From Alphaproteobacteria bacterium (lineage in GTDB: Bacteria; Pseudomonadota; Alphaproteobacteria; MPNO01; UBA830), in assembly GCA_964291215.2 (NCBI GenBank), contig OZ219791.1, positions 448,001 through 512,000 on the forward strand: a stretch of DNA of 64,000 nucleotides, written 5' to 3'. Numbering within the stretch: position 1 is the first letter of the stretch; every line of letters begins with the position of its first letter. A program made the translations under genes and the position numbers. Below the pieces are notes generated by a model, which searched no databases, had not been told where the DNA came from, and saw only the letters and a program-made list of their open reading frames with translations. Below are positions 21,338 through 39,401 of the stretch, one piece after another.

Positions 21338-22954
21338 GTAACTGCTCACCCCCTGGTTCCGGCTTGATGTCGGGGTAGAGTAACGAACGGGTTTTCGTGG
21401 AGATTTGACACTGCATGCCGATTCGCTTAGTGGTGGTCATCGAGAACGACGGGGACCGCCAGTGGGCTACTTTGGATCGAAGGCGACGAGCGGGCTGTGC
21501 CAGCTGCTTCCGGGGCTCCGCATGATCTGTATGTGGAAACGCATCTCGGAGGCGGCGCGCTGATGAAGCGCAAGGCCGGGTGATGGCGACGGTCAACGCG
21601 GCGCGCGAGGAGTTCGAAGCGGCCAGGATCGCGGCGCTGCGTGCGGCCGGCAAGGTGGCGGAAGAGGCCGTCATCCGCGTCCTCGTCATCCTGCTCGACA
21701 TCCTCATCGTCGTCCTTCTGGAGAAGACCACGCGCAAAACGAGCCGGAACTCCGGTCTGCCGCCGTCACAGACGGACAAGAGCGTGCCGGGAGCAACGGC
21801 AAGGGCCCGAAGCCAAACCGGCAGATGGGCGACAACCTGCGCAAGACCATCGTCGAGGAGACGGTCGCGGTCGATGCCTGCGACGCCTGCGGCGCTGACA
21901 TCGACGGCGTCGACCCCGTCGATCGGGAGCGCCGCGTCCTCTACGACATCGTGTTCGAGGTCGTCGAGCGCCGCGCCGAGATCAAGGAATGCCCGAAGTG
22001 CAAGGCCCGAACCAAGGGCCGGTTCCCCGAAAACATCCCGTGCAGTACGGCATCGGCATCCAAGCCCTCGTCATCAACCTGCTGGTCGCCCAAATGCTGT
22101 CCCTGCGCCGTGCCGTCGCGTTCGTGCAGGCGATCTCCGGCATCAAGCTCTCCGAGGCAACCTGCCTCGGCTATGCTTTCACGATGCGCTCGTGTCATGG
22201 GAGGAGGCCGCCGTGGCGCACCTCCTGCAACGCCCGGCCCTGCATGTCGATGAGACCGGCTTTCGGATCAACAGCAAGTGGCTCCATGTCGTGGGACCCT
22301 GACGTGCAAGTTCCCGCACCGCAAGCGCGGCCGGGAGGCAAGAGATCGGCATCATCCCGTGCTACAAGGGCGTCCTGACTGCTGGGCCTCGTACATGGGC
22401 CAGTGTAGCCACCAGCTGTGCGGCAGCCACCTGCTGCGCGAACTGACCTTTGTCGTCGAGGCTACCGCTGGGCGCGACTTATGAAGAGCCTGCTCCCTGC
22501 CACAAGGTCAACAAGAGCGCATCCAAAACCCTGAACGAGGCCGACCTCCGGGCCGTGCGCAAGCGCTACCGCACCATCCTCACGCAGGGCGCCAGGGAAC
22601 TGCCCGATATCCCGCCGCCGCCGAAAGGAAAACGTGGACGCAAGTCCGACGCGCACAACCTGCACGAACGTCTCGTGAAACACGAAAACCTGCGCTTCAC
22701 AGACGAACCCAACGTCAGCTTCACCAACAATGCCGGAGAACAGAAGATCAGGATGGCAAAGGTCAAGCTCAAGGTGTCTGGATGCTTCCGCTCCACGCAA
22801 AAGCATGGTGCCGGAGCTCAAGCTACCTCACCTCCATGGCCGCACTCGGCTACAACCCACTCGTCGCCACCCAGATCGCCCTCGACGGAAAAGCCGCAGA
22901 CATCATCAACGAGCACTATGGCCAATCAGAACCCAACAAGGGGTGAGTAGATAC
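21338..22954 (+). mobile_element. IS66-family element, copy 1, with degraded transposase
   Basis: Ends gtaactgctcacccc / ggggtgagtagatac, 8-bp TSD ttttgagt; 'RNSGLPPSQ', CxxC zinc finger, 'LHVDETGFR', 'HQLCGSHLLREL', 'FTNNAGEQKIRMAKVK.KVSGCFR'. Confidence 0.9.
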
Positions 22955-23011
22955 TTTTGAGTTAGCCCCTGACTGCTGATCGCACTTCGGCATTCTCCTA
23001 ATATAATCCCC

Positions 23012-23041
23012 AAAAGGAAGGGCGGCCGAAGCCGCCCTTCC
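23012..23041 (-). terminator. Rho-independent terminator of porin copy 2
   Basis: Reverse complement ggaagggcggc-ttcg-gccgcccttcc-tttt. Confidence 0.8.
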
Positions 23042-23066
23042 GAAACGCAACCGACGGAAACAGCCG

Positions 23067-24092
23067 TCAGAACTTGATCTGGACGCTGGTCCCGAAGAAA
23101 GAGCCGTCCTTCTTCATCTCTTTGTTTTTGGTCATCAGCGCATCCAGAGACCAGCTGACGCCGGGGCCGAGCGAACGCGAGAACGTCATGATGGCTCCGT
23201 TCTGGTCGACCATAGCGTCATCGGAAAGCTGGATATAGCCAACCCGGACGGCATTCGGACCGAACTTGTAGCGGAGACCGACATCGGTACGGGTGAAGTC
23301 CTCGTCGGCCGTGTTGTCGTCCTTGCTGTTGCGGACAATGCCAGCGGCGGCGGTGAAGCCTCCAAAGTCAGCCTTGAGGCCGGCGGTTATCATGGTCGCG
23401 TCGGCGGTAGCGCCTTCGCCGTTGCCGACGGCATAACCCACGGCGGCCCCGACGCCGGCATCGCCGAACTTGCCGTTGTAGTTGACGGCGGTAGAGACGA
23501 TGTCTTCACGACCGCCTGCTGTCTGCGCGTAGGACACGCCGCCCTGAAGCCCGCTGATGCGCGGCGTGAAATACATGACCGCCTTGTCATCGTTCGAAAG
23601 GCGCGGAATTCCGCGTCCAATACTAAGGCCCATGCCGGACAGACTACTGTCAAACTCGAGATTGAGATGTCCGGTCGCGGTGCCGACATGGCCCATGTAG
23701 CCATAGGCCATCTCGTAAGCCGCGCCGTCGGTCGCGCCGATGCGGATCTTGCCGAACGAGCCCGTGACGTCCATGTAGCTTTCGTCGATCCACTGCGAGC
23801 TACTGGAATTCTCGGCGTCACTTTCGAGTTCGGCCTTGCCGGAAACGGTGATGCCGTTGTCGAGCTTCATCGAGGCAATGAAGTGGATCTCGCCGTCTTC
23901 CTGCTGGACGACCTGGCCGTCATCAATGCCCTTATCATCGCTGTCGGCTTTCTGGAAGCCGATGCCCTGCTCGAAGACGCCGCCGATCTTGAGCGACGGC
24001 TTCATCATCTTGTCGTCCGCAACCGCGCCGCCGGAAAGCACCAGCACGCTCGCGGCAACCAGTGCCGTGGTGGTAAGAAACTGCTTTTTCAT
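23067..24092 (-). CDS. Outer-membrane porin, copy 2 (near-identical to copy 1)
   Basis: Same 341 aa except KAVVYF vs KAVMYF. Confidence 0.85.
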   Translation of the reverse strand: MKKQFLTTTALVAASVLVLSGGAVADDKMMKPSLKIGGVFEQGIGFQKADSDDKGIDDGQVVQQEDGEIHFIASMKLDNGITVSGKAELESDAENSSSSQWIDESYMDVTGSFGKIRIGATDGAAYEMAYGYMGHVGTATGHLNLEFDSSLSGMGLSIGRGIPRLSNDDKAVMYFTPRISGLQGGVSYAQTAGGREDIVSTAVNYNGKFGDAGVGAAVGYAVGNGEGATADATMITAGLKADFGGFTAAAGIVRNSKDDNTADEDFTRTDVGLRYKFGPNAVRVGYIQLSDDAMVDQNGAIMTFSRSLGPGVSWSLDALMTKNKEMKKDGSFFGTSVQIKF

Positions 24093-24365
24093 GTTACTCC
24101 TCCCTAGGGGTTTGGTAAGTACGCTGCCCGTGCGGGCAACCGCGTCCTGAGACGGTATCCGCCCGGGTATCAGGACAGACGCCCGGACAAACCGAGCGCC
24201 ACGCGGAACCTTTTTATGCGCTACCGCGCCGGCTTGCAATCGAATCGAACGGACTGTGGCAAAAAAGCACAGGCATGTTGCCAAAACACAACGGTTCTGC
24301 CGCGCATCGATCCGTTGTTTGTGGTCCGATTGCCCGGCGCGGCCGATCGGTGCTAACCTTCGCCC

Positions 24366-26531
24366 ATGACTGTCCCAGACGGCATCCATACCACGACCTG
24401 CTGGGAATGCAGCACGCGGTGCGGCGCCAGGGTGACCGTGGCCGGCGGGAGAGTGGCCGCGATCGGCCCCAACCCGGCGCATCCGGGATCGAGGGGTGCC
24501 TACTGCGTCAAGGGCATTCGCGGCCTCGACGAACTTACCCACGGCAGTTCCCGCCTCCTGCGGCCGCGCCGCCGCGCCGGTCCGCGCGGCTCGGGCAAGT
24601 GGCAGGACATCTCCTGGGACAGCGCGCTCGACGAGATGGCGGACCGCCTACTCGACGCGCGCGCCACGCACGGCCCGGAGGCGCTGGCCGGCGCAGTATC
24701 AAGCGCATTCTTCAGCCGCGGCGCCATGGTCGCGCTGCTCATGCGCGCACTCGGCTCCCCGAACTGGATGATGAACCAGGATCTGTGCGGCGGGTGCCGG
24801 GCACTGTCGGACCGAATCACCGGTCTCGGGATCGTCGGCGGCGAGGATGTCGACCACACCCGCTGCGCCCTTGTCGTCGGGCGCAACCCGCAGGCCGCCG
24901 ATCCGGCGCAGTGGATGGCGCTGAAGCGGGCGAAGGAAGCCGGCGCGCGGGTCGTCACCATCGATCCCGCACGCACGCCGGCGGCCGATATTGCCGACCT
25001 CTGGCTGCGCCCGCGCGCCGGAACCGACGCCGCGATCGCACTCGCCATGATCGACGTCATCGTCAGCGAGAATCTCCATGACCAGGCATTCGTCGAGGCC
25101 TGGACACGGGGTTTCGGGGAGCTTCAGAAGCGCGCCGCCGAATTCCCGCCGGCCCGCGCTGCCGCGCTTTCCGGCGTCGCCACCGACGACATCGTCGCGG
25201 CGGCGCGGATGTATGCCGACGGCCCGTCCTGCTTCGTGTCCGGACACGGAATCGACGCCGCCTCCAACGGCGTCCAGACCTTCCGGGCCTTTCACTGCCT
25301 GGTCGCAATCACCGGCAATGTCGACCGCCGCGGCGGCAATATCCGGGTCAAGCGGCCACGTGGGTTCCGCAACTATATCGACATCCTCCACGATCCGGCC
25401 TTCGCGCTGCCGCCCGAGATCGCGAACCGCACGCTCGGCGCCGACCGCTTTCCGCTGTGGGCCGGCCCGCGCGGCTGGCAGACCGCGGCCCACAACCCGA
25501 CCGTGCTCCGGGCCATCCTGACCGGGGAGCCGCATTCGGTCCGCGCCATGCACGTGTCCGGTGTCAACATCGCCGTCACCTACCCCGGCACGCAGAGGGT
25601 CATGGCGGCGCTCCGGTCGCTCGACTTCCTGAGCGTCGCCACCCACACGATGACGCCGACTGCGGAGCTCGCCGATATCATCCTGCCGAAGACGACCGGG
25701 CTCGAGGAGGAGGAGGTCTCGCTCTACCCGTCGGCGCAGATCGTCTCCTACACCAGACCAGTCAAGGAACCGGAAGGGGAAGCACGCTCGGATTTCGATT
25801 TCACAACCGATCTGACTCGGCGCCTGGAGCAGCGCGGCCTCGATGTTCGGCGTTTCTTTCCGTGGGAGACCAAGCGCAAGTTCAACCGCTATCTGCTCGG
25901 CGACGAGATCGACTGGGACGTCCTGGTCGCGCAGGGCTGGGCGGATTTCGAGTACGAACTCGGCGATTTCGGGAAGGCCGGTTTCCGGACCCCCTCAGGC
26001 AGGATCGAACTGTGGTCCGAGACCCTCGCCGACCTCGGCATCGATCCGCTGCCCGGCTACGTCCCGCCGCGCAGCGAACGCGTCGGCGACGGGATCCACG
26101 GGGACTACCCCCTAGTGCTCCTGACCGGCGCGCGCGAGAAGACCTATCACCACTCGCGCTACCGCGACCAAGCCTGGACGCGCAAGGTTTCCCCGTTCCC
26201 GCTCCTGCAGGTCCATCCGGACACTGCGGAACGGCTCGGACTCGCCGACGGCGACTGGGTGGCCGTCGAGACCCCCGGCGCCGACGGGCGCTGCAAGCTC
26301 AGGGTCGCGGTCACCGCCAACACCCAGCCCGGCGTCGTCCGCACCGGCATGGGGTGGTGGCTGCCCGAGGCGGCCGGCCCCGAACGCGGCGCACTCGAGG
26401 TGAACGTCAACGCGGCGCTGTCCTATGACGGCCCGTGGGACCCGGTGACCGGATCAGCCGACACCAGGGGTCTGCCATGCCGGATCGCGCCGATCGAGGA
26501 GGCCGAGATCCCGATGAGGAACACCGCGTGA
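24366..26531 (+). CDS. Cytoplasmic molybdopterin (bis-PGD) oxidoreductase, acetylene-hydratase-like/DMSO-reductase family
   Basis: 'CWECSTRCG...CVKG' 4Fe-4S motif, 'ISWDSALD', 'PRAGTDAA', 'TPTAELADIILP', 'TPSGRIEL', C-terminal molydop-binding domain; no TAT signal. Confidence 0.85.
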   Translation: MTVPDGIHTTTCWECSTRCGARVTVAGGRVAAIGPNPAHPGSRGAYCVKGIRGLDELTHGSSRLLRPRRRAGPRGSGKWQDISWDSALDEMADRLLDARATHGPEALAGAVSSAFFSRGAMVALLMRALGSPNWMMNQDLCGGCRALSDRITGLGIVGGEDVDHTRCALVVGRNPQAADPAQWMALKRAKEAGARVVTIDPARTPAADIADLWLRPRAGTDAAIALAMIDVIVSENLHDQAFVEAWTRGFGELQKRAAEFPPARAAALSGVATDDIVAAARMYADGPSCFVSGHGIDAASNGVQTFRAFHCLVAITGNVDRRGGNIRVKRPRGFRNYIDILHDPAFALPPEIANRTLGADRFPLWAGPRGWQTAAHNPTVLRAILTGEPHSVRAMHVSGVNIAVTYPGTQRVMAALRSLDFLSVATHTMTPTAELADIILPKTTGLEEEEVSLYPSAQIVSYTRPVKEPEGEARSDFDFTTDLTRRLEQRGLDVRRFFPWETKRKFNRYLLGDEIDWDVLVAQGWADFEYELGDFGKAGFRTPSGRIELWSETLADLGIDPLPGYVPPRSERVGDGIHGDYPLVLLTGAREKTYHHSRYRDQAWTRKVSPFPLLQVHPDTAERLGLADGDWVAVETPGADGRCKLRVAVTANTQPGVVRTGMGWWLPEAAGPERGALEVNVNAALSYDGPWDPVTGSADTRGLPCRIAPIEEAEIPMRNTA

Positions 26532-26995
26532 GCGCCGCCAGACGCCTGCAGGAGCTCGGGCTGGAGCTGCCACCGCCCTTCGCCTACCCGAGCGCCAACC
26601 GCACCGGCTGCGTCCGGAGCGGCGACCTGCTCTTCGCGTCCGGCCATCCGCCGCCGGAGAATTTCGGGGTGAAGACCGTCGGCAAGGTCGGCGCGGAAGT
26701 CAGCGAGACCGAGGCCTACGCGGCCGCGCGCGCCACAGCCCTCAACATCCTTGCCTCGGTGGCGCAGAGCCTCGGCTCGCTTGACCGTGTGGCCCGCGTC
26801 GTCAAGGTCTTCGGCATGGTCAACTCGGCTCCCGGCTTCGACCGCCAGTTCGCGGTCATCGACGGCGCCTCCGACCTGTTCTGCGAACTCTTCGGCAACG
26901 ACGCCGGACAGCACGCCCGGAGCGCGGTGGGCATGTACGAGCTGCCGCGCGGATTCTGCATTGAAATCGAGGCGGTATTCGAGGTCCGCGACTAA
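26528..26995 (+). CDS. RidA/YjgF-like family protein
   Basis: 'RLQELGLELP', 'GKVGAEVS', 'VVKVFGMVNS', 'GASDLF..LFG..GQHARSAVG..ELP...EIE'; GTGA coupling. Confidence 0.85.
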   Translation: MSAARRLQELGLELPPPFAYPSANRTGCVRSGDLLFASGHPPPENFGVKTVGKVGAEVSETEAYAAARATALNILASVAQSLGSLDRVARVVKVFGMVNSAPGFDRQFAVIDGASDLFCELFGNDAGQHARSAVGMYELPRGFCIEIEAVFEVRD

Positions 26996-27173
26996 GTCCC
27001 GCGGCCCGGGAACCGTCAGCAACGCTCCGCAACGGTCCGCCCGCCCGCCGCCGAGAATTTTTTCTTGACACCCCCTCCGCGGGGTAGACAATGGCCGTTG
27101 GCGGCACGTCTGGACTCATCGAGCTGACGGGTCCCGCGCCGTCCGCAAAACCGGGTTTCAAGGGAGGAAGCTC

Positions 27174-27902
27174 ATGACGGAAACATGGAAGGAATACGAG
27201 CGGGAGTTCGACGAGTACGAACTGCCGCCTGATCCGGCAGACGATTTCGACTGGACGCCGGCCACCGCCGAGGTCGCGGGCAACCTGCCCGACATGCCCT
27301 TGGCGAGCTGGCGGGAGCCGGGTACGAGCCGCCGCGAATTCCTGCGCGGCGTGGTCTGTTCCGGTGTCGCCGTCTCGGCAGCCGCTTACATGTTCGCGGG
27401 GAACTCCGGCCAGGCACGCGCCGCGGTGCGCGGCGTCGAGCGCCTGATCTCGCTCAACGTCAACGGCAAGACCCGCCGCGTCGACGTGCCTCCGAGCGAG
27501 ACCCTGGCCCAGACCATCCGCTACCGCCTCGGGCTTACCGGAACCAAGATCGGCTGCAACCGCGCCGAGTGCGGCGCCTGCACGGTGATGGCAGACGACA
27601 TCACGATCTATTCCTGCTCGACGCTGACCCACCAGGCGCGTGGCCGCAAGATCACCACCGTCGAAGGCGTTGCCGACCCGTCGGGGAAGCTCCATCCGGT
27701 GCAGCAGGCGTTCATCGACGAACTCGGCCCGCAATGCGGCTTCTGTACCCCGGGCCAGGTCGTCTCGGCCGTCGCGCTCCTCAAGAAGAACCCCGAACCC
27801 ACCGTGGACGAGGCGCGGCGCGCCATGTCCGGTAACCTTTGTCGATGCGGTGCATACGCCCATTACCTCAACGGGGTGATGCGCGCCGCCGGGAGGGCCT
27901 GA
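27174..27902 (+). CDS. Mo-hydroxylase 2Fe-2S subunit with TAT motif (PaoA/CoxS-like)
   Basis: 'SRREFLRG', 'GTKIGCNRAECGACTV', 'QCGFCTPG', 'GNLCRCG'. Confidence 0.9.
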   Translation: MTETWKEYEREFDEYELPPDPADDFDWTPATAEVAGNLPDMPLASWREPGTSRREFLRGVVCSGVAVSAAAYMFAGNSGQARAAVRGVERLISLNVNGKTRRVDVPPSETLAQTIRYRLGLTGTKIGCNRAECGACTVMADDITIYSCSTLTHQARGRKITTVEGVADPSGKLHPVQQAFIDELGPQCGFCTPGQVVSAVALLKKNPEPTVDEARRAMSGNLCRCGAYAHYLNGVMRAAGRA

Positions 27903-27906
27903 AGCC

Positions 27907-30321
27907 ATGGCCTACAACCTGATCGGAAAGAACTTCACCGCGCCCGACCTTCACGCGAAGGTCACCGGCGCCGCCAAATACGCAGAGGATTTCCGCGCCG
28001 ACGGCATGGTCTTCCTCAAGACCTACCCGTCGCCGATGCCGCACGCCAAGGTCAAGTCGATCGATGTCGACAAGGCCAAGAAGATGCCCGGCGTCGTCGG
28101 CGTGATGCTGCCCGAAGACATCAAGCAGCCGGGCGGCGCCGGTCACGCCATTCTCACTGCCTATCCGGTGTTTGTCGGCCAGCCTATCCTGGCCATCGCC
28201 GCGAAGACCGAACAACAGGCCGAGGACGCCATCCAGACGGTCAGGGTCGAGCTTGACCCGCTTCCGTTCTGCGTCGATCCGCTCGAGAGCCTGAAACCCG
28301 ACGGCCCCAACGCCAATGTCGGCGGCAACGTCGCCAACCCGCGCGGGATCAAGCTCCAGGAGATCAAGTGGACGGGCAAGGACTTCGCGCTTGCCGGCGA
28401 CGACCGGCTGCCCATGGGCAAGCCGGCGGACGAGTGGACCTTTGGCGATCTTCAGGCCGGGTTCGCCAAGGCCAAGGCCGTCGTCGAGGAGACCTTCGTC
28501 AGTTCGGCCAATGCCCATCACGCGATGGAACCGCGTTCGGCGGCCGCCTATTGGGAGAACGGCAAGGTCCATGTCTGGGGCTCGACCCAGTCCTCGTCCT
28601 TCGCCATCCCGAGCCTCGCCAAGTATATCGGCGTCAAGCCGTCCCAGCTCAACCTCGTCAGCGAGTTCTGCGGCGGCGGTTTCGGCGGCAAGGCCTATTC
28701 CTATCCGCTGATGGCGCTGCCGGCGTTGATGTCGAAGAAGCTCAACGGACGGCCCGTCCTGATGCGCGCCAGCCGCGCCGACGAGTATTACAACGGTTCC
28801 GGACGCGCTGCCTTCCAGGGCTGGGTCAAGATCGGCTTCGCTGAAAACGGACGGGTGGTGGCGCTCGACAGTTACGTCATCCAGGATAACGGTTCGACCG
28901 TGGGCTTCTGGGATTTCAAGAATTTCGGGGCCGCAGCCTCCGTCATCCTGCAACCGGAGGCGATGCGCTTCCGGGGTATTCCGGTGCTCACCAACACCCC
29001 GCCCAAGGGGCCCCAGCGCGGTCCCGGAGAGAACCAGACCGCAAACATCCTAGAACCGCTGCTCGACAAGGGCGCCCGCATGCTCGGCATCGACCGGCTG
29101 GCGCTGCGCCTGGTCAACGCGCCGGGAGGCGGCCAGGGCGGCAAGATCGGGGGCAAGCAGGCGCCGCTCACCAGCGCCTATCTGCGCGAGGGCCTCGAAC
29201 AGGCGGCGAAGAAGTTCAACTACGCCGGCCGGATGAAGAAGGCGGGCAAGCAGCCGGATGGCAAGATCCGCGCCATCGGCATCGGACAGGCCTACCACGC
29301 TGCCGGCGCGGCCGGGTTCGACGGCATGGTGCGCATCACGCCCGACGGCAAGCTGCACATCCATACCGGCGTCGGCAATCTCGGCACATTTTCCTACGCT
29401 TCGACATCGCGTGTTGCCGCCGAGGTCCTCGGGTATGACTGGGCGAACACCGTCATCGAACGCGGCGGGTCGCTCAAGGCGATGCCTTTCAATCTCGGCC
29501 AGTTCGGGTCGAACACGACCTTCACCATGACCCGGACCAACTATGCCGCGGCTATCGACGCCAGGGACAAGCTCCTTGAGATCGGCGCCATGGTCATGGG
29601 CGGCGCCGCGGGCGACTACAAGCTCGACGGCGAACGCGTGGTCGCGAAAGGGGGTAGCAAGTCGATCACCTTCGCCGAGGCCGCCAAGAAGGCGATCGAG
29701 GTCGGCGGGAAATACTCCGCCAAGGAGGTTGACGAGAAACTCAACCCCCTGACCAAGATGGCCGCAAACATGGTCGCGGGGACCGGGCTGATCGGCGTCG
29801 CCAAGGACAAGCTCCCCAAGAAGGGGGTGGTGCCGGGACTGGCAGCGGCGTTCATCGAGATCGAGCTCGATCCGGAAACCGGCCGGGTCGATATCCTCGA
29901 CTATCTCGGTGTCGCCGATGTCGGCCAGGTGCTGCACCCGCAGGGTCTGGACGCCCAGATCCTCGGCGGCGCGATAATGGGTTTCGGGCTCGCAGCCACC
30001 GAACGGCATGTCTACGACCCGGCCTACGGGCGTCCCAACGCCATCGGGCTGCATCATGCGAAGCCCCCGACCTATCTCGACGTGCCGACCCAGATGTCGG
30101 CGCTCGCGGTCGAGGGCGCCACCGACCCACAGAACCCGGTCGGCGCCAAGGGTGTCGGTGAACCGGTTCAGGGCGCCGGCTCCTCCGCCTACCTGAGTGC
30201 GGTGTCCGAGGCCCTCGGCGGCCACCTGTTCAACCGAGTGCCGGTCGTCGCAGACATGATCGTCAACACGCTCGCCAAGCAGCCGCAATCCTACAAGCCG
30301 CTGCAGGTCAACAGCCAGTAG
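27907..30321 (+). CDS. Xanthine dehydrogenase family molybdopterin-binding subunit
   Basis: 'KVTGAAKYAED', 'HHAMEP', 'GGGFGGK', 'RGPG', 'GAKGVGEP'. Confidence 0.9.
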   Translation: MAYNLIGKNFTAPDLHAKVTGAAKYAEDFRADGMVFLKTYPSPMPHAKVKSIDVDKAKKMPGVVGVMLPEDIKQPGGAGHAILTAYPVFVGQPILAIAAKTEQQAEDAIQTVRVELDPLPFCVDPLESLKPDGPNANVGGNVANPRGIKLQEIKWTGKDFALAGDDRLPMGKPADEWTFGDLQAGFAKAKAVVEETFVSSANAHHAMEPRSAAAYWENGKVHVWGSTQSSSFAIPSLAKYIGVKPSQLNLVSEFCGGGFGGKAYSYPLMALPALMSKKLNGRPVLMRASRADEYYNGSGRAAFQGWVKIGFAENGRVVALDSYVIQDNGSTVGFWDFKNFGAAASVILQPEAMRFRGIPVLTNTPPKGPQRGPGENQTANILEPLLDKGARMLGIDRLALRLVNAPGGGQGGKIGGKQAPLTSAYLREGLEQAAKKFNYAGRMKKAGKQPDGKIRAIGIGQAYHAAGAAGFDGMVRITPDGKLHIHTGVGNLGTFSYASTSRVAAEVLGYDWANTVIERGGSLKAMPFNLGQFGSNTTFTMTRTNYAAAIDARDKLLEIGAMVMGGAAGDYKLDGERVVAKGGSKSITFAEAAKKAIEVGGKYSAKEVDEKLNPLTKMAANMVAGTGLIGVAKDKLPKKGVVPGLAAAFIEIELDPETGRVDILDYLGVADVGQVLHPQGLDAQILGGAIMGFGLAATERHVYDPAYGRPNAIGLHHAKPPTYLDVPTQMSALAVEGATDPQNPVGAKGVGEPVQGAGSSAYLSAVSEALGGHLFNRVPVVADMIVNTLAKQPQSYKPLQVNSQ

Positions 30322-30343
30322 CCGGCGGAGAGGAGACAAACCG

Positions 30344-31333
30344 ATGACCGACTATATGCACGCATTCGACCTGTATGCGCCCGGCAGTCTCGGCGAGACG
30401 GCCGAACTTCTCGACAAGCACGGCAAGGATGCCTGGCTCGTCGCCGGCGGCAAGGACAGCTTCGACTGGTTCAAGGATCGCCACAAGACACCCAAGGTGG
30501 TCGTTGACATCTCGGGGCTGGCCGCGCTGAAGGGCGTTGCCGACAAGGGAGACCATATCGCGATCGGCGCGGCTACCACGCTGACCGAGATCGAGGAAAA
30601 CGCGGTGCTGCGCGACGGCTACCCGCTTCTCACGATGGCGGCCAGCAAGGTCGCCAGTCCGCAGATCCGGAACTCGGGCACGATCGGCGGCAATGTCGCG
30701 CAGGACACCCGTTGCACCTACTACCGCGACGGCTTTCCATGCTACCGGGCCGGCGGCAACACCTGTTACGCCAATACGCCAACGGCCATGAACCGCGAGC
30801 ACGCCCTGTTCGACGTCTCGCGGTGCGTCGCGGTGACGCCTTCCGACACCGCTCCGGCCCTGGTCGCGCTTGATGCTCAGATGGTGATTTCCCGCGCCGG
30901 CAAGGAGCGCGTGGTTCCGGCCGAGAAATTCTTCATCGGGCCCGATATCGACATCACCCGCATGACGGTGCTCGAACCGGAGGATGTGCTCACCCAAATC
31001 CGCCTGCCGAAGAAATGGGCTGGCACCCGGCACTATTTCGAGAAAGTGGCGGATCGCCAGACCTGGGATTTCGCGCTGGTCAGCATTGCCATGGCCGCCC
31101 GCGTTGACGGCGGCAAGGTGTCCGAAGTCCGGGTTGCCTGCGGCGGGGTGCAGTGTACGCCGCGGCGGCTGACCGATGTCGAGGACCTGATGAAGGGGGA
31201 GGCGCCGGGCGCCGAGCTTGAAACGCTTGCCAAGCGGGTTGCTGCCCGTGGCGCCAAGCCGCTCAACTACAACCACTTCAAGATCCCGCTGATGGCGAAT
31301 CTGGCGGCGCGCGCCGTCCGCTCGCTCGCCTGA
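30344..31333 (+). CDS. Mo-hydroxylase FAD-binding subunit with 4Fe-4S insert (PaoB-like)
   Basis: 'VAGGKD', 'ASPQIRNSGTIGGN..QDTRC.YYR..FPC...GG..C', 'PSDTAPAL'. Confidence 0.9.
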   Translation: MTDYMHAFDLYAPGSLGETAELLDKHGKDAWLVAGGKDSFDWFKDRHKTPKVVVDISGLAALKGVADKGDHIAIGAATTLTEIEENAVLRDGYPLLTMAASKVASPQIRNSGTIGGNVAQDTRCTYYRDGFPCYRAGGNTCYANTPTAMNREHALFDVSRCVAVTPSDTAPALVALDAQMVISRAGKERVVPAEKFFIGPDIDITRMTVLEPEDVLTQIRLPKKWAGTRHYFEKVADRQTWDFALVSIAMAARVDGGKVSEVRVACGGVQCTPRRLTDVEDLMKGEAPGAELETLAKRVAARGAKPLNYNHFKIPLMANLAARAVRSLA

Positions 31334-31338
31334 ACGCG

Positions 31339-32083
31339 ATGGAACTGTTCCGTGTCTCCAGGAATGTCTGGGGACAGGAGATGCTGCTGGGAATGTCGTG
31401 GGACCTGCTCTGGTTGCCGGTCGCCGCGGCATTCTCCTGCATCATAGCGCACCAGATCTTCCGGCTTGCCACAAGACAATCCTGAAATCCCGAGCATCAG
31501 CGCGGTGCCGGGGGAAATCCGACACGCGTGGCCCGACCGGCTGTTCCACTGGACGATGGCCGTGCTCACGCTGGTGCTCCTCGCCACCGCGTTCCTGCCC
31601 GTGGTCGGCGTACAGTTCGACTGGGTCCCGATCCACTGGATATCCGGGATCCTGCTCACCGCCACGGTGATCTTCCACCTCTACCGCGTCCTTGCCGTCC
31701 ACGGCATCACGTCGATGATGCCGGTGCGTGGAGACCTGCGCGCCGCCATGGGCGGCAAACCCGTTGCAGATGATGCAAAATACGATCTCGGCCAGAAGCT
31801 CTATCACTGGTCGGTCTCCGCCGTGATGCTGGTGCTGGTCGTCACCGGCCTCATCATGCTCGCCAAGATCGACACGCCGCTCTGGCGCCGGGATCCGTCG
31901 ATCCTGTCCGACTGGGACTGGGGGGTCGTCTACGCATTGCACGGCGCGGCGGCGCTGCTCCTGATATTCCTTTTCATCCTCCACATCTATTTTGCCTTTC
32001 TTCCAGAACATCGCCGGCTTCTCGCGGCAATGGCGCTGGGGCGCCGGGTGCCACCCGCAACCAGGAACGGACCTCAACCATGA
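31339..32083 (+). pseudogene. Cytochrome b/FdnI-like membrane subunit with a frameshift near 31470-31500
   Basis: ATG 31339 frame 'MELFRVSRNVWGQEMLLGMSWDLLW..' stops at 31485; heme-b domain 'RH..PDRLFHW...HW..G...KYDLGQKLYH...LH...HIYF' continues in another frame. Confidence 0.6.
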
Positions 32084-32454
32084 ATGCCGCAGGACTACGG
32101 AAACAGATCGAAGCGATCGAGGAAGCCTACGAATATATGCTCGCCTATGCCGCCCAGGGCCGAGCGGACGAGGGGGCGGGACCGGATGGTGCGCATATCA
32201 GGACCTTCCTCGCTCAGTTCGAGGCAGCCGCCGTCGCCATCGCAGCCAAACTCGACGACACTCTCTCCGGCAACGAGGCGGCGGGGTTCCACGCTGCCCT
32301 TGCCCGCGATTCCGAAACCGTGCTATCGGTACTTCGGGTCATGCAGATCCGCGATAACATCTCGTCGGAAGTCGTCGACAACGCCAACGGCCTAATTGCC
32401 GTCCGCTCCTACCTGACGTCGCTGTTCTTCCTTGACAAGGTGGCACTGCCCTAA
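32080..32454 (+). CDS. Hypothetical protein, last gene of the Mo-hydroxylase operon
   Basis: 124 aa, ATGA-coupled, 'IEEAYEYMLAYAAQG'. Confidence 0.65.
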   Translation: MNAAGLRKQIEAIEEAYEYMLAYAAQGRADEGAGPDGAHIRTFLAQFEAAAVAIAAKLDDTLSGNEAAGFHAALARDSETVLSVLRVMQIRDNISSEVVDNANGLIAVRSYLTSLFFLDKVALP

Positions 32455-32547: not shown

Positions 32548-32735
32548 CACGACGATCCCATGCTAATTCGGAGACGCGAAATCCGAATACGTTGGGGCTC
32601 ATCACAGATCGCCTCCTTGATCGCAATTTTCGTGCCGAGAAGGCCCCATAGAGCCTTGGCGGCACGATTGCAGCGCGACGCAAACTGAGAAAATCTCGCC
32701 AGTCGTCGCCGGATTAGCAGCGTGGGATCACCATG
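32548..32735. mobile_element. MITE family A, copy 2
   Basis: Aligns to 8341-8533 with a 5-bp deletion (gcgtc). Confidence 0.8.
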
Positions 32736-33132
32736 GATGCACGCGCGCCGCGCTGTGCGCCATAGCCCTCGCGAGCGAAGCGGCGACCTTCCAGCTGCTG
32801 GAAACCGGCCACGGAATCATGCCGACCATCGCGACATCTTCCATAGCCGATCGCGTTCCGCGCAAGGCGCTGATGTACCTGACCTATTCCACCAGGGCGA
32901 TCGACGCGCCGAGAGCCCTTTCCACGAGGATCGTCAGCGACGTGTTCGCAGCCGACGCGCTGTAGAGCACGCTGGAAGAACTCTGCGCGGCGATCGAAAA
33001 GGCGCCACGGCCGGCCATCCTCGGGATCAAGGAATATGCGCGCTCGGCGCTGTCCATGGACATCTCAAGCGCTGTCGACTTCGCGCGCAACCTGCACACG
33101 GCCGTCAATTCGGCTCCGGGGATGCACGGCTG
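32736..33132 (+). pseudogene. Enoyl-CoA hydratase/isomerase 3' remnant
   Basis: 'IMPT...DRVPRKALMYLTYST..IDA.RAL..IVS.V', an internal TAG, then 'APRPAI.GIKEY....D...AVDFARNLH'. Confidence 0.5.
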
Positions 33133-33201
33133 AGGCTGCCGGGAGCGACGACAACGCGTTCCGGCCACGGAACAGTTCGAGAGGCCGGTCCGCGGCACCC
33201 G

Positions 33202-34569
33202 CTATTCGGACAGCAGTCGGCCGATCCGAGCCCGAATCTCGTCTTGTGCTGGATCGTCCCGGTCGAGCACCTCAGCAAGGGTCCGCCAGTGCGCGAGCGC
33301 CACCGTCCTGTCGCCACGCGCAAGCGCCAGCGATCCCGCGAGATCGAGGCCGCGCCGGTTGCGGCCGTCGAGCGCGAGTATTCGCTTCACGACGGGATTG
33401 ATCTCGGCCGGATCCGGCGGATCCGGCCTCGCGGCGGCGACGATGCCGTCGGCCCAGGCCACCAGGATGTCCACATCATCCGGACGCAGCGTCGCCGCTC
33501 GCGCCCAGGCCGCCCTTGCCTCATCCAACTCGCCCAGCGCCGTCCGCGACTGCGCCAGGCGGAGCCAGCCCGCCACGTTGTCGGGTTCCGACGCGAGGCG
33601 ATCGGCGAGCCCATCGACCATCGCGCGGATCATGGCCGCACGGTCTTCGACCGAAAGGCTTGCCGCCACCGCAACATCGCCGCGGGTCGGGTCGCGCATC
33701 TCCTCCGCTTTTCCGCGCGCCGCGCCGTCAGCAGCCGCCCGAGCACCCCGAGTGTCAGTCATCTCGGCTTCGAGAGCCGCCACGCGCCCCCGGACGAAGA
33801 CCGCCCAGGGCGCGTCCGGCGACAGATCAGCCACCAGCGTGCGCCAGCGCGCAAGCGCGGCCTCGGGCCGGCCGGCCCGTCGCTCGGCTACACCCACATA
33901 GTAGGACGCCCGGGGCTCTCCGGGATCCCGCCGCAGCGCCTCCTTGAACGCCGCCAGCGCCCGGGGGGTGACCCGTCCGCCGGCTGCCAGCGTCAACGCC
34001 CGGCCCGCCAGTGACGGATAGGCCGCGTTCGAGGCGTCGAACCGCGCCGCATGCCCGAAGGCGACGCCCGCCTTTTCGTGATCCCCGAGGCGGGACAATG
34101 CCTCGCCCAGCGCCGCCCAGCCGCGGGGGTTGTCCGGCTCCCTCTCGAGAGCGCCCGCGATTTCGGCGACCCGCTGCCGCCCGTCCACCGCGGGCCCGGC
34201 CCGCAGAACCACATCCGGTTCCCCCTGAACCAGGTAGAGCAGAAGCCCCAGCACCGGCACGCAGGCCACCATGCACAGGCCCGCAATCAGCCTGGGACCT
34301 GACCGCAGACGTTTTCGGGAGGAAGCCGGCGAGTCCGCAAGCGCCAGCACGCGGCGCTCGATTTCCGTTCTCGCCGCCGCCGCCTGTTCCGCGGCAAGGG
34401 TGCCCCGCGCGAGATCGCGCTCGATCTCGTCGAGCTGGCCGCGATACATCTCCAGTACCGGATCCAAGCACCGCTCTTCGGCGCGGACACCGCGAAGCAG
34501 CGGCCAGGCCACGAGCAACGCTCCGGTGAACCCCACCATCAGCACTAAGACGATCCAGAGTTCGATCAT
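33202..34569 (-). CDS. ccmI: Cytochrome c biogenesis TPR protein CcmI/CycH
   Basis: N-terminal TM, '[15 protein letters not shown]...RTEIERR.L', TPRs, '[22 protein letters not shown]'. Confidence 0.85.
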
Positions 34570-35033
34570 TCCCCCTGTCCGCCCAGGACCGTTTCAAGCC
34601 GCCGTCTCTCGTCCGCAGACAGCGGTTCCGGCTCCCTGGCTCCGTCCCGGCGGCGGCGGATCACGATCCACGCGATGCCGGCTGCGAGCACTATCCAGGG
34701 CCCGGTCCAAAGCGCCAGGGTCGACGCCTTGAACGGAGGCTTCAGGAGCACGAAATCACCATAGCGCGCGACGACGTGATCGATGACCTCGGCATCGCTC
34801 GCGCCAGCCTTCAGCCGCTCGCGCACAAGAAGCCGGAGGTCGCGCGCCAGAGTCGCGCTGGAGTCGTCGATCGACTGGTTCTGGCACACGAGACAGCGCA
34901 GTTCCCTGCTAATCGCGCGCGCGCGCGCCTCAAGGCCGGGATCCGTCAGGACCTCGTCCGGCTCGACCGCGCTGACGGACAAGGCGGCCGCGAGGCAGCC
35001 GAAGACCAGGATGGCCGACAGCGCGATCCTCAT
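34566..35033 (-). CDS. ccmH: Cytochrome c biogenesis protein CcmH/CycL
   Basis: '[14 protein letters not shown]...LARDLR...RYGDFVL'. Confidence 0.92.
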
Positions 35034-35581
35034 TCCAGGCCGACCCTTTGCAGGACCGGACGCAGCACATTCTCGAGATCGCCGGGATTGATCGGACCGA
35101 CATGGCGGTAGCGAATGCGTCCCGCTCCGTCGACGACGAAGGTCTCCGGAACGCCGTACACACCCCAGTCGATTGACACGCGTCCATTGATGTCGGCGCC
35201 GAGCCCGGTGTAGGGATTGCCCAGAGTTTCGATGAAGGCGCGCGCATCTTCAGCCCGGTCCTTGATGTTGATGCCGTGGATCGGCACACCCTCCCGCGCC
35301 AGCTGAATCAGCGCCGGATGCTCCGTACGACAGGGCGCACACCACGAGGCCCAGACATTGACCAGGGACGGCTTTCCCAGCAGGTCCGCCGTCTTCAGGC
35401 CGCCGGGAAGTCCGGTTATCGGCGGAAGCGCAAACTCAGGCACCGGCTTGTCCAGCAATGCCGACGGAATCCGCGAGATGTCCTTGCCGCCGGCACCGAT
35501 CTGCCAGAGGTAAAATCCGAGGACCCCGGCGAGCGCAGCGAGGACCACGACCGGAACGAAGCGAGCCGGAGACAGGATCAT
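35030..35581 (-). CDS. ccmG: Thiol:disulfide interchange protein CcmG/DsbE
   Basis: '[14 protein letters not shown]', 'GNPY', '[10 protein letters not shown]'. Confidence 0.92.
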
Positions 35582-37548
35582 GGCGACGGCACCGCAACGG
35601 GCGCGGCGCGGCGGCGTACGCGAAGCCGCCGGTCGCCGAGCGATATCGCCCCGCCGACCGCCATCAGGGCCGCGCCTGCCCAGATCCACGGCACCAGAGG
35701 GTTGTGGTAGAGACGGGCCGTCCAACCACCCCTGCCGTCGGATGCCCCGAGCACGGCATAGATGTCGGCGAGCCATGTGGTATGGATCGCCGCCTCTGTG
35801 GTGGTTGCGCGCTCGGCGGGATAGCTGCGGTTTTCAGGGAGCAACGCAGCGACGGCGCGGCCGCCGCGGCGGACCGCGAAGGTGCCCTGCACCGCCGTGT
35901 AGTTCGGCCCCCTCCGGAGGCCGGTACCCTGGAACTCCACCTCGTAGCCCGCTAATTCGACGGTGTCGCCGGAGCGCATGATCAGGATGCGCTCCTCCTG
36001 CCAGGCCGACGACACCGTGATCCCGGCAACCATGACGCCGAGCGCGGCATGGGCGCAGGCGGTGCCCCATGCGGAAGCGGGAAAGCCGACGGCGCGGCGG
36101 ACCGAATCGCGCAGCGGAACCCGTGCCAGCCCCGCCTGTCCCGCGATGCCGACCGCCGACCCGGCAATCAGCCATGCCGCCAGCCCGAGACCAAGCGCCC
36201 CCAGAATTCCGCTCCGTGCCTCGACACCGGCCGCCGCGGCCGCGACGGCAATCGCAACCACCGCTGCCACCCACAGTCTCCCGAGCACGCCTGACAAGTC
36301 GCCGCGTTTCCACGCCATCATGGCTCCGATCGGACAGGCGACGAGCAGGGGAATCATGAGAGGCCCGAAGGTCATGTCGAAGAACGGTGCGCCGACAGAG
36401 ATCTTGCCACCGTCAAGGGCATCGACGAGCAGCGGATAGAGCGTGCCGAGGAGAACGACGGCGCACGCCGTAGCCAGCAGAAGGTTGTTGAGAACCAGCG
36501 CCCCTTCCCGGCTTATCGGCGCGAACGGTCCACCGGAGACGGCGCCGGGAGCGCGGAGCGCGAAGAGGGCCAGGGAGCCGCCAATCACGACCACCAGGAG
36601 AACGAGGACGAAGACCCCGCGCTCCGGATCCGCGGCAAAGGCGTGTACCGAGGTCAGTACGCCCGAGCGCACGAGGAACGTGCCCAGAATCGCCAGCCCG
36701 AACGTGACGATGGCAAGGAGGATCGTCCAGTTCGCCAGCATGTTGCGCCGCTCCACCACCAGCGCGGAATGCAGCAGCGCAGTGCCTGCGAGCCACGGCA
36801 TCAGGGACGCGTTCTCGACCGGGTCCCAGAACCACCAGCCGCCCCAGCCAAGCTCGTAATAGGCCCACCAGCTTCCGAGCGCGATGCCAACCGTCAGCGA
36901 AATCCAGGCTAGCAGAGTCCACGGACGCACCCAGCGCGCCCACGCAGCGTCGACCCGACCCTCGAGAAGAGCCGCGACGGCAAAGGAGAAGGCTATCGAG
37001 AATCCGACATAGCCCAGATAGAGGAACGGCGGATGGAAGGCAAGACCGGGATCCTGGAGAAGGGGGTTGAGGCCGCTGCCCTCGATCGGCACGGGATCGA
37101 GCCGGGTGAACGGGTTGGAGGTGAAGATCGAAAAGGCAAGAAAGCCGGCACCCACGGCGCCGTGGATGCCAAGCGCTCGCGCCCGAAGGGTCGCCGGCAA
37201 GGCGCGGCCGAACTCGGCGACCATCAGCCCGAACAGCGCAAGGATCAGTATCCACAGCACCATCGAACCCTCATGATTGCCCCAGACGCCGGTCAGCTTG
37301 TAGAGCATCGGCTTGAGGGTATGGGAATGCGACGCAACCAGCGCGACCGAGAAATCCGAGTTCACGAACGCCCATGTCAGCGCCGCGAAGGCGATCCCGA
37401 CCATCAGGAACTGGCCGCGCGCCGCCGCACCCGCAACGTTCATGAGCGCCTCGTCGCCGCGACGGACGCCGATGAACGGCACGGTTCCCTGAACAGCCGC
37501 GAGGACCAGCGCCAGCGCGAGGGCGTAGTGCCCAATCTCGGGAACCAC
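35578..37548 (-). CDS. ccmF: Heme lyase CcmF
   Basis: 'WGNHEGS', 'HPPFLYLGY', 'WAYYELGWGGWWFWDPVENAS', 'SVHAFA'. Confidence 0.95.
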   Translation of the reverse strand: MVPEIGHYALALALVLAAVQGTVPFIGVRRGDEALMNVAGAAARGQFLMVGIAFAALTWAFVNSDFSVALVASHSHTLKPMLYKLTGVWGNHEGSMVLWILILALFGLMVAEFGRALPATLRARALGIHGAVGAGFLAFSIFTSNPFTRLDPVPIEGSGLNPLLQDPGLAFHPPFLYLGYVGFSIAFSFAVAALLEGRVDAAWARWVRPWTLLAWISLTVGIALGSWWAYYELGWGGWWFWDPVENASLMPWLAGTALLHSALVVERRNMLANWTILLAIVTFGLAILGTFLVRSGVLTSVHAFAADPERGVFVLVLLVVVIGGSLALFALRAPGAVSGGPFAPISREGALVLNNLLLATACAVVLLGTLYPLLVDALDGGKISVGAPFFDMTFGPLMIPLLVACPIGAMMAWKRGDLSGVLGRLWVAAVVAIAVAAAAAGVEARSGILGALGLGLAAWLIAGSAVGIAGQAGLARVPLRDSVRRAVGFPASAWGTACAHAALGVMVAGITVSSAWQEERILIMRSGDTVELAGYEVEFQGTGLRRGPNYTAVQGTFAVRRGGRAVAALLPENRSYPAERATTTEAAIHTTWLADIYAVLGASDGRGGWTARLYHNPLVPWIWAGAALMAVGGAISLGDRRLRVRRRAAPVAVPSP

Positions 37549-37901
37549 GCCGGCGATCCCTTCAGCCCTGCCGGCCCTGTCGGCAGGAGTCGACGGCAGG
37601 CGCCCGCACGCCGACGGGATTCCACGCAGAAGCCCTGCTGCGAAGCCGCATGCGGGTCGTGCGGGAGGAGCCGGAATATCTCAAGGGGAACCCCTCCCTG
37701 TCATGGAGCCCGCCATACGGCGACTTGTTTCAGCCGGTTAGGAACAACGGTGAGGAGATCGGCTACGGCTGGAATCTATCCCGGCACCACGCCGTTTTCA
37801 ACGTCCCGCTTCATAGGTTCAGCGATGACAGGGCCACGGGAAGTAGTACCCCTTTGCTCGAACTCACTTGCGACAGCCCAACTCATCAGCCTTGCCCCAG
37901 G

Positions 37902-39401
37902 GTAACTGCTCACCCCCTAGTTCCGGCTTGATGTCGGGGTAGAGCAACGAACGGGTTTTCGTGGAGATTTGACACTGCAGGCCGATTCGTTTAGTGGTGG
38001 TCATCGAGAACGACGGGGACCGCCAGTGGGCTACTTTGGATCGAAGGCGACGAGCGGGCTGTGCCAGCTGCTTCCGGGGCTCCAGCCCCCGCATGATCTG
38101 TATGTGGAAACGCATCTCGGAAGCGGCGCGTTGATGAAGCGCAAGGCCGGGTGATGGCGACGGGCGGCGCGCGAGGAGTTCGAAGCGGCCAAGACCGCGG
38201 CGCTGCCGGCAAGGTGGCGGAAGAGACCGTCATCCGCGTCCTCCTGCTCGACATCATCATCGTCGTCCTTCTGGAGAAGACCACGCACGAGCCGGAACTC
38301 CGGTCTGCCGCCGTCACAGACGGACAAGAGCGTGCCGGGAGCAAGGGCCCGAAGCCAAACCGGCAGATGGGCGACAACCTGCGCAAGACCATCATCGAGG
38401 AAACGGTCGCGGCCTGCGACGCCTGCGGCGCTGACATCGACGGCCCCATCGATCGGGAGCGCCGCACGACATCGTGTTCGAGGTCGTCGAGCGCCGCGCC
38501 GAGATCAAGGAATGCCCGAAGTGCAAGGCCCGGGGCCGGTTCCCCGACAACATCCCGTGCAGTACGGCATCCAGGCCCTCGTCATCAACCTGCTGGTCGC
38601 CCAAATGCTGTCCCTGCGCCGTGCCGTCGCGTTCGTGCAGGCGATCTCCGGCATCAAGCTCTCCGAGGCCTCGGCTATGCTTTCACGATGCGTCATGGGA
38701 GGAGGCCGCCGTGGCGCACCTCCTGCAACGCCCGATGTCGACGATTTCGGATCAACGGCAAGTGGCTTCATGTCGTGGGACCCTGACGTGCAAGTTCCCG
38801 CACCGCAAGCGCGGGCAAGAGATCGGCCCGTGCTACAAGGGCGTCCTGGGCCTCGTACATGGGCCAGTGTAGCCACCAGCTGTGCGGCAGCCACCTGCTG
38901 CGCGAACTGACCTTTGTCGTCGAGGCTACCGCGCGACTGATGAAGAGCCTGCTCCGCGAGATCTGCCACAAGGTCAACAAGAGCGCATCCAAAACCCTGA
39001 ACGAGGCCGACCTCCGGGCCGTGCGCAAGCGCTACCGCACCATCAGGGCGCCAGGGAACTGCCCGACATCCCGACGAAAGGAAAACGTGGACGCAAGTCC
39101 GACACGCACAACCTGCACGAACGTCTCGTGAAACACGAAAACCTGCGCTTCACAGACGACCCCAACGTCAGCTTCACCAACAATGCCGGAGAACAGAAGA
39201 TCAGGATGGCAAAGGTCAAGGTGTCCGGATGCTTCCGCTCCACGCAAAAGCATGGTGCCGGGGCTCGAGCTACCTCACCTCCATGGCCGCACTCGGCTAC
39301 AACCCACTCGTCGCCACCCAGATCGCCCTCGACGGAAAAGCCGCAGACATCATCAACGAGCACTACGACCAATCAGAACCCAATTAGGGGTGAGTAGATA
39401 C
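37902..39401 (+). mobile_element. IS66-family element, copy 2, more heavily deleted
   Basis: Same ends as copy 1 and colinear with it; no TSD (gccccagg vs gcttggcg). Confidence 0.9.

Follow-up and report, generated by a model that had tools for sequence, protein, structure and literature searches.

In a 64-kb window of an alphaproteobacterial genome (G000:C2:448001-512000, where G000 is the genome under study and window positions refer to this whole stretch), two copies of an IS66-family insertion sequence (IS) differed by indels of 5–7 bp only, and deletions of this size prevailed in every repeat family recovered from the genome. The observations were a sharp size window, a polarity toward loss, identical positions in different copies, no co-transfer of single nucleotide polymorphisms (SNPs) between subfamilies, depletion near repeat ends, exchange mostly without crossover, and a weak signal in single-copy DNA. 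With modest confidence, we favor the explanation that rare new 5–7 nt deletions are spread among copies by homology-templated excision of the loop only, without repair synthesis across nearby mismatches.

The global alignment of copy 1 and copy 2 contained 23 indels of 5–7 bp and 30 substitutions over 1486 aligned bases, and no indel of 1–4 bp or longer than 7 bp. Copy 2 lacked 21 segments present in copy 1 (three of 5 bp, ten of 6 bp and eight of 7 bp), and copy 1 lacked two segments, each of 7 bp, present in copy 2. The first-pass annotation of this stretch had given the same 21 plus two split and about 30 substitutions, and these counts proved exact to the base. It had also read the gaps as separate events on the two copies, which did not hold. 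All 21 segments that copy 2 lacks were absent from further members of the family too (each from 6–99 of the 110 full-length copies in G000, copy 2 included), 19 of them from at least 39 copies; the two missing from copy 1 were gone from 7 and 25 copies. Judged by sequence comparison, the gaps of copy 2 are family-wide alleles and not independent hits. Copy 1 was among the least-deleted of the 110 copies, with deletions at 11 of 38 scored sites, and copy 2 was deleted at 25 of the 38.

The genome comprised 6.15 Mb in two contigs (99% complete), with a two-piece transfer-messenger RNA and a 16S sequence ~89% alike to Phyllobacterium and Skermanella records. Repeats, defined as 21-mers occurring at least four times, represented 26% of it. 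When the 110 focal copies were compared as 55 disjoint pairs, which requires no reference sequence, 614 of 877 indels were 5–7 bp long, alongside 2182 substitutions; the counts for lengths of 1 to 8 bp were 75, 48, 39, 7, 129, 284, 201, and 10. Among 33 seeds tried, 28 yielded families with at least four full-length copies, and the commonest deletion length was 5, 6 or 7 bp in all 28, which confirmed the genome-wide peak that had been predicted from the single pair. The Pfam labels of the families included IS66, IS256, two IS630, IS110, ISAs1-type, ISAzo13, group II intron reverse transcriptase, and fibronectin-III genes. As these labels span many transposase classes and non-IS genes, the process was not tied to one transposase class. 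The 20 non-redundant families (556 copies, 928 kb, with eight overlapping families excluded) contained 2374, 5710, and 3826 deletions of 5, 6, and 7 bp, respectively, against 347, 131, 146, and 122 deletions of 1–4 bp and 301 of 8 bp. There, the 5–7 bp class made up 78% of indels at 12.8/kb, next to 17,334 substitutions; 7-bp deletions were ~13-fold commoner than 8-bp deletions, and 1-bp events were less than 5% of indels. None of the 110 focal copies retained an open reading frame (ORF) longer than 75% of the element, which a few copies in other families did. All seven fibronectin-III genes kept long ORFs; their shared losses, which were missing from the most diverged copy, were mostly in-frame 6-bp deletions (57 of 101 deletions).

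The polarity was assessed with an intact transposase frame of 488 residues from the sister genome G001. It matched the merged long-allele reference over 463 residues with four frameshifts, copy 1 over 436 residues with nine, and copy 2 over 389 residues with 11, and all frameshift steps were lost bases. An intact G001 IS66 aligned with one G000 copy showed 16 gaps, each on the G000 side. From these alignments, the long alleles are ancestral and the events deletions. Merged references take in once-seen 5–7 bp insertions, which inflates the top frequency class, while the pairwise and outgroup counts are free of this bias. The read check called for at first pass also gave a positive result: Logan contigs of runs X1 and X2 carried the same indels among the 12 of 46 listed that were shown, at summed depths in the thousands, where single-copy DNA had depths of 79 and 223. 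The two runs came from one study, X1 possibly being the source sample. The 5-bp loss at 21593 had a depth of 4711 of 9287 in X1, and several further segments of copy 1 that are missing in copy 2 appeared deleted in read-derived contigs. Logan contigs cannot place alleles at individual loci, so that per-locus haplotypes rest on the assembly; over 10500-17200, the alleles in the X1–X3 contigs could not be phased to loci. The X3 contigs carried unphased long alleles at window positions 11449, 11567, and 11918 at full listed depth, none of which occurred in X1 or X2, a hint that the set of spread deletions varies between strains. Related sequence in the sponge-metagenome runs X4 and X5 consisted only of pieces 85–95% alike, too distant to establish the habitat.

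Within the focal family, all four gametes occurred for 497 of the 703 pairs of deletions and for 1847 of the 3240 pairs of SNPs, which thus failed the four-gamete test, and the allele combinations among copies were not tree-like. The r2 between deletions was ~0.02 beyond 100 bp, and linkage decayed within 10–20 bp. A rare tightly linked marker was found ~100 bp from the right end, where four substitutions within 6 bp were linked in 33 of 110 copies. The frequent C-to-T changes had no context motif, which indicated that SNP sharing reflects conversion and not hot spots; methylation hot spots were ruled out for the same lack of sequence context. The 8-bp target duplication was kept in 77 of the 102 copies having both ends, and none of the other 25 had a swapped partner. 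Exchange was therefore mostly non-crossover, and alleles were shared between paralogues as in ordinary gene conversion. Of 821 deletions of 5–7 bp, 303 were present in at least half of the copies, compared with 3 of 113 of 1 bp and 3 of 86 of 2–4 bp. This frequency was independent of microhomology class (36–41% of events at half of the copies or more).

Eight families were examined for subfamilies, and three were split by 16–47 diagnostic SNPs. In these three, 31 of 41, 34 of 40, and 24 of 32 deletion sites were common to both subfamilies. Sharing across subfamilies was seen for 120 of 163 deletions of 5–7 bp, 2 of 14 of 1–4 bp, 1 of 9 of 8–9 bp, and 234 of 697 SNPs, and the fixation index (Fst) was 0.17–0.26 vs. 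0.40–0.56. Deleted copies carried the foreign SNP allele in 33 of 638 cells (5%) within 10 bp and in 142 of 2940 (5%) at 41–80 bp; the proportion stayed at 5% from 1 to 80 bp with no rise toward the deletion, and adjacent markers were thus not co-converted. The long alleles held subfamily-specific bases, also inside the deleted segments, which placed the deletions later than the subfamily split. Deletion sites private to a subfamily usually had several nearby differences and sometimes one. On SNP trees, which were built from the same SNPs, deletions needed more parsimony steps (ratios of 0.48–0.89 vs. 0.23–0.60).

Deletion load depended on the position within the repeat and on copy number. In 12 families, deletions per kb in successive bins to 150 bp from the repeat ends were 0, 1.9, 2.8, 3.2, and 8.8, compared with 11–23 in the interior, and SNP density was flat (16–28/kb) from the ends inward. 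Selection on element ends could contribute to this depletion. Measured against G001, deletion density was 0.16/kb in DNA with one copy (639 kb), 0.7–0.8/kb at 2–5 copies (17 kb), and 6.9/kb at 6–20 copies (11 kb); deletions of 5–7 bp were ~80-fold denser in repeats (~13/kb) than in single-copy DNA. In 10 of 17 families, some of which were redundant, more diverged copies bore a lower load. An array of 96 identical 36-bp CRISPR repeats was unaffected. The earlier suggestion of a defense resembling repeat-induced point mutation (RIP) stood in part: the damage was tied to repetition and homology, as the copy-number gradient and end depletion show, and the sharing of alleles favored copying between repeats over fresh mutation. 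There was no C-to-T change in a preferred dinucleotide, the lesion being a deletion.

New deletions were sought in single-copy DNA by comparing ~0.95 Mb of the 5-Mb genome G001 (~93% identical) with G000; polarity here rests on the asymmetry between these two genomes. Clean 5–7 bp events numbered 60 in G000 vs. 4 in G001, compared with 62 vs. 50 for 1 bp and 10 vs. 10 for 3 bp. In-frame single-copy genes (431 kb) had 32 vs. 2 losses of 6 bp and 11 vs. 11 of 3 bp, and intergenic DNA (85 kb) had 41 vs. 9 losses of 5–7 bp. The density in intergenic single-copy DNA was only 0.48/kb, against ~13/kb in repeats, which contradicted the first-pass idea that all non-selected DNA is being shredded. Among the 60 single-copy events, 28 had at least three bases of microhomology and 20 had none. 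The 456 frequent repeat events had 0 bp in 168 cases and 1 bp in 115 (283 with 0–1 bp), in line with the note's remark that only some junctions show microhomology; at least 2 bp were seen in 173 vs. ~91 expected, a modest excess. Direct repeats at junctions, the sign of slippage or microhomology-mediated deletion, were not the rule.

A weak symmetric preference existed at the ends of the lost segments (not-C, pyrimidine … purine, not-G), with both halves independently enriched, and single-copy events shared it (p = 0.002, n = 27). No recognition motif or protospacer adjacent motif at a fixed offset was found within 45 bp, and so the proposed search for a junction motif yielded only this end preference. 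The deletion sites were not well fixed by sequence. Hairpins or palindromes were ruled out, as they were not enriched at deletions. Helical periodicity of the sites was not found, the even-odd pattern being a rounding artefact, and the codon phase of deletions was slight and inconsistent. Centering on mismatches, suggested by eye in the related genome G002, was also rejected: polymorphism in G000 was 0.16–0.17 inside vs. 0.10–0.14 outside the deletions, with no central peak. The IS66 target preference fitted only 6-bp events and at one of nine offsets (p = 0.005), which leaves abortive transposase cuts as a weak lead to the origin of the deletions.

Five genomes of the genus were compared. The repeat counts of the relatives come from fetched repeat loci only (252 kb in G002, 225 kb in G004, and 33 kb in G003), and the repeats of G001 were mostly unassembled. 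The signature was strong in the complete 6.1-Mb genome G002, which is ~76% identical to G000. Its pairwise indels comprised 753 of 5 bp, 1091 of 6 bp, 109 of 7 bp, and 199 of 1 bp, at 0.10 per substitution, so that the size window differed (5–7 bp in G000 and 5–6 bp in G002). In alignments, the G002 deletions crossed subfamily lines with the flanking SNPs retained, and 54 of 66 junctions had 0–1 bp of microhomology. The other relatives showed little or no signature: in G004, 1-bp indels were dominant and 5–7 bp made up 47 of 250 pairwise indels alongside 5843 substitutions, and the small sample from G003 had zero 5–7 bp indels per 160 substitutions. In G002, eight young IS66 copies of identical sequence (L094, L097, L101, L103, L106, L109, L112, and L115) stood beside degraded relatives 81–91% alike; they lacked all but two of the frequent deletions of the family, and represent a natural time zero for the process. 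No IS shared by G000 and G002 was closer than ~70% for a test of independence. The trait was thus strong in two of the five genomes, and its distribution is patchy, G002 being a more distant relative of G000 than the sister genome G001. This suggests gain or loss of a gene. Taken with the family, outgroup and single-copy comparisons, the relatives uphold the earlier claim of a fixed-size, deletion-directed and lineage-restricted process.

Core recombination and repair functions were largely present in G000, with 20 of 23 Escherichia coli queries found. Open frames were seen for RecA, MutS, MutL, UvrC, UvrD, PolA, RecJ, XseA, RuvABC, RecG, RecQ, and DnaQ; RecX and SbcCD (the latter by tblastn) were not found. 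MutS and MutL were intact, with their motifs present, and G001 had the same MutS and UvrC. A mismatch-repair-deficient mutator was not indicated, since neither mutS nor mutL was broken, 1-bp indels did not dominate, and 1-bp deletions equaled those of the sister genome. Ku and ATP-dependent ligase, the components of Ku-LigD end joining, were each found in none of the five genomes, and the Piwi domain in 0 of 25, although short Argonautes may escape this model. The helpers named at first pass (Ku/LigD, a prokaryotic Argonaute, loss of mismatch repair) therefore found no counterpart. None of the 95 spacers of the large CRISPR array fully matched the repeats (the 17-repeat array was not compared); with neither Piwi domain, spacer match nor motif within 45 bp, Argonaute- or CRISPR-guided cutting was not indicated.

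We propose that a long copy pairs with a deleted copy, whereupon the extra 5–7 nt would loop out, be cut away, and be sealed with little or no synthesis. New deletions may arise anywhere through a largely microhomology-independent cut-and-seal reaction with the weak symmetric base preference, with some slippage loops in addition. RecA-type pairing over ~150 bp or more of flanking homology would expose the loop. Loops of 1–4 nt would be handled by MutS and hence not driven, giving the lower size edge, and the upper edge (7 nt in G000 and 6 nt in G002) would come from the nuclease. The joint would then be dissolved and the partner strand clipped or replicated. As the spread is one-way, each deletion would ratchet through its family; frameshifts would kill mobile elements, and selected multicopy host genes would retain almost solely in-frame 6-bp losses. 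The lower edge matches the limit given in the cited part of one source, where bacterial mismatch repair is efficient to ~4 nt (PMC2504288).

Alternatively, deletions may recur afresh: homology would license a staggered-cut nuclease that removes 5–7 bp at sequence-determined spots in each copy, with no deleted template, which is the scheme closest to fungal RIP. Such cutting accounts for identical sites without SNP co-transfer, for end depletion and for copy-number dependence; a symmetric end preference exists, and G002 has clusters of adjacent deletions with differing end points. However, the preference is weak and accompanied by neither motif nor hairpin, and a site classifier reached an area under the curve of 0.72 with scores unrelated to deletion frequency (rho 0.03–0.06). 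One site was deleted in 0 of 24 vs. 20 of 34 copies whose contexts differed once, 9 bp away; families 25–30% diverged had 1 of 31, 0 of 14, and 0 of 5 sites in common, and neither Ku nor ATP-dependent ligase was found for end joining. Fresh recurrence in each copy is thus disfavored, and we regard it as unlikely. We also give a low chance to ordinary gene conversion, frequent among hundreds of IS copies and acting in short independent patches, in which standard proteins would favor the shorter strand for loops that MutS misses. The required genes are there, SNPs are reshuffled down to 10–20 bp, the two genomes with the signature exceed the others compared in size and IS content, and mismatch-repair-independent loop repair exists in E. 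coli according to the cited part of PMC2504288. This leaves the sharp edge between 7 and 8 bp and the G002 window unexplained, as well as the single-copy excess over a sister with the same MutS and UvrC, and co-transfer does not increase toward the deletion.

A past genome-wide mutator episode, with deleted masters multiplied in trans and then reshuffled by unbiased conversion, would agree with the weak positive linkage of deletions at every distance (r 0.12–0.19), the single-copy signal, and the young G002 copies that carry only two frequent deletions. Yet single-copy DNA never neared the repeat density, none of the 1304 windows of 500 bp holding more than three events, and the ratio of 5–7 bp to 1-bp deletions was 34 in repeats vs. 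0.36 in intergenic DNA. A deleted master would be required in each of the 28 families, the host fibronectin-III genes included, and the long alleles bear their subfamily's own bases in the deleted segment; such an episode seems quite improbable. We consider it very improbable that assembly or polishing mixed or invented alleles among the copies. The end depletion does span about one short-read length, and no run phased alleles to loci; however, the deleted alleles were deep in the contigs of two samples, long alleles restored the frame relative to an intact homologue, and a second genome had a different window. Mis-mapped reads would be expected to bring their own SNPs or to remain within the subfamily.

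Several observations weigh against loop-only excision templated by deleted copies. In eight pooled families the load was flat up to 9% divergence (rho 0.02) and lower only in four copies beyond. At two low-frequency sites, the deletion did come with the neighboring foreign SNP, in 3 of 4 deleted copies at one and in 3 of 3 at the other. SNP reshuffling within subfamilies points to frequent ordinary conversion, and repeated short tracts could erase co-transfer. Register-shifted variants of the same length with at least two differences (30) were not clearly above expectation. As to subfamily age, the codon phase of diagnostic SNPs (38 of 84) resembled that of private SNPs (201 of 464). G004 showed a faint shoulder at 6–7 and 9 bp, and none of the 17 Pfam families searched across the genus gave a nuclease confined to G000 and G002.

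The search for candidate enzymes excluded RadC, whose distribution was wrong (G000 plus a broken gene in G003), AEP-TOTE, with a single partial match in G000, and Smr and UvrC, which were present in all five genomes. Three intact radC genes lie in G000 (C1:818031, C1:463468, and C2:25184), and none was found in G001, G002, or G004. RecT, S1/P1, Vsr, topoisomerase IB, endonuclease VII, PDDEXK_2, endonuclease V, and UvdE were not found in G000; G002 contained eight Vsr-family matches (e.g., C1:5505061-5505276) and two weak NucS-like matches, of which G000 had none. Rpn/YhgA nucleases numbered 12 and 16 in the positive genomes vs. 4, 2, and 5 elsewhere. Being found in all five genomes, they are a weak lead; the cited part of PMC5350276 ascribes little specificity to RpnA. 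In G000 they occupied 12 places, such as C2:1147910-1151563 with three in tandem; seven frames were 318–348 amino acids (aa) long, and four other genes shared one 8-bp frameshift. The locus L232:3764-8911 (G000:C2 near 2751800) encoded a 1716-aa fusion of RecQ-like and UvrD-like helicases. Two CRISPR systems were located at C1:574176-592000 and C2:2063955-2069544; one had the 96 repeats with Cas4-Cas1, Cas3, and GSU0053/0054 genes, and the other a 1055-aa Cas9 with 17 repeats.

Among known systems, RIP of ascomycete fungi is likewise a homology-dependent, repeat-directed and one-way process that inactivates mobile elements and becomes weaker toward the ends of repeats. There, a methyltransferase-like protein of a premeiotic eukaryotic cell creates new C-to-T changes in every copy. 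In this bacterium, by contrast, the lesion is a 5–7 bp deletion that copies have in common, and frequent C-to-T changes lack a context motif. In kinetoplastid U-deletion editing, a paired guide bulges extra nucleotides, which are excised and the ends ligated with unchanged flanks; it acts on RNA, is uridine-specific and eukaryotic. The analogy is functional only, and homology is not claimed. The mismatch endonuclease EndoMS/NucS makes a 5-nt staggered cut and resembles the present process in its symmetric cut of similar size in heteroduplex DNA; however, its gene was not found in G000, and deletions were not centered on polymorphic sites. Cordaux in 2009 reportedly described gene conversion among IS copies in Wolbachia. 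The likeness lies in exchange without crossover between decayed IS copies of a genome resembling that of a symbiont, and the difference in that whole tracts are homogenized, with no deletion size class or bias apparent in the cited part of PMC3205602. Large loop repair, which is independent of mismatch repair and occurs in E. coli, yeast and mammals, likewise acts on heteroduplex loops too large for MutS, either removing or filling them. In the part of the source cited, it handles loops up to hundreds of nucleotides, is nick- or loop-directed, involves repair synthesis in the yeast system, and comes without a 5–7 nt window, a genome-scale ratchet, or a bacterial protein identified by then (PMC2504288). 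The 3n deletion bias of bacterial pseudogenes also yields excess 6-nt deletions in neutral DNA, the lengths following a power law with bumps at 3, 6, 9, and 12 in the cited part of PMC6054270; here, 5 and 7 bp were 16-fold and 26-fold commoner than 3 bp, respectively.

The features of the window are collected in Table 1. No target duplication was formed by the flanks of copy 2. The copy of another repeat family had 31 deletions relative to its reference, 29 of them of 5–7 bp, and 212 of the 392 gaps in 18 alignments of the further repeated DNA were 5–7 bp long. The ISAs1-type element carried a single 5–7 bp deletion vs. a median of 36 in its siblings. Its ORF was an intact DruA (Druantia) domain fused to an ISAs1-type transposase; a related 586-aa frame occurred in locus L221, and both were spared most deletions of the family. 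A group II intron-type reverse-transcriptase element (L229:957-2114; G000:C2:3402500-3406200) occupied a fixed site within ~31 focal IS66 copies and was itself shredded. Unrelated to the deletions, 27174-32454 (+) contained a molybdenum hydroxylase operon (2Fe-2S, molybdopterin, and FAD subunits) with cytochrome b561.

Table 1. Repeat-related features in the 64-kb window.
Feature	Position	Strand	Basis or remark
IS66-family element copy 1, 1617 bp	21338..22954	+	PF03050 match at 22450-22950
Left 8-bp target-site duplication of copy 1, TTTTGAGT	21330..21337	+	same letters as 22955-22962
Right 8-bp target-site duplication of copy 1	22955..22962	+	matches 21330-21337
Stretch of copy 1 with 21 ancestral 5–7 bp segments missing in copy 2	21593..22768	+	alignment
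IS66-family element copy 2, 1500 bp	37902..39401	+	alignment, PF03050
Copy of another repeat family (20 copies)	11356..12509	-	comparison with merged family reference
Near-intact DruA-domain ISAs1-type element, 645-aa ORF at 12763-14700 (+)	12664..14721	+	exception to deletion load
Further repeated DNA with the same indel peak	43829..47388	not assigned	alignments to paralogues

To our knowledge, no process in bacteria recognizes repeated DNA as such and degrades it. Full-text literature searches, which most subscription papers lie outside, returned no description of such a pattern. We rate the phenomenon as categorically new as a genomic process, RIP-like in effect and loop-repair-like in chemistry, and failing a defining test of each family of mechanisms tested. 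It may, at somewhat under an even chance, be the equivalent of RIP in bacteria, with deletion in place of point mutation. A lineage-restricted, dedicated nuclease with a 5–7 nt ruler would then let deleted copies guide the clipping of others with the flanks untouched, and deletions would drive their own spread until families of IS, group II introns and other repeats die out. The elements are inactivated, perhaps as a defense. The molecular ruler is sharp and different in two species, in a genome of which about a quarter is repeats, and comparison between genomes of the genus can reveal the gene responsible, given the patchy occurrence of the trait. If loop clipping is true, it would represent a new route of heteroduplex processing, a drive-like deletion bias, and a source of a size-selective loop nuclease.

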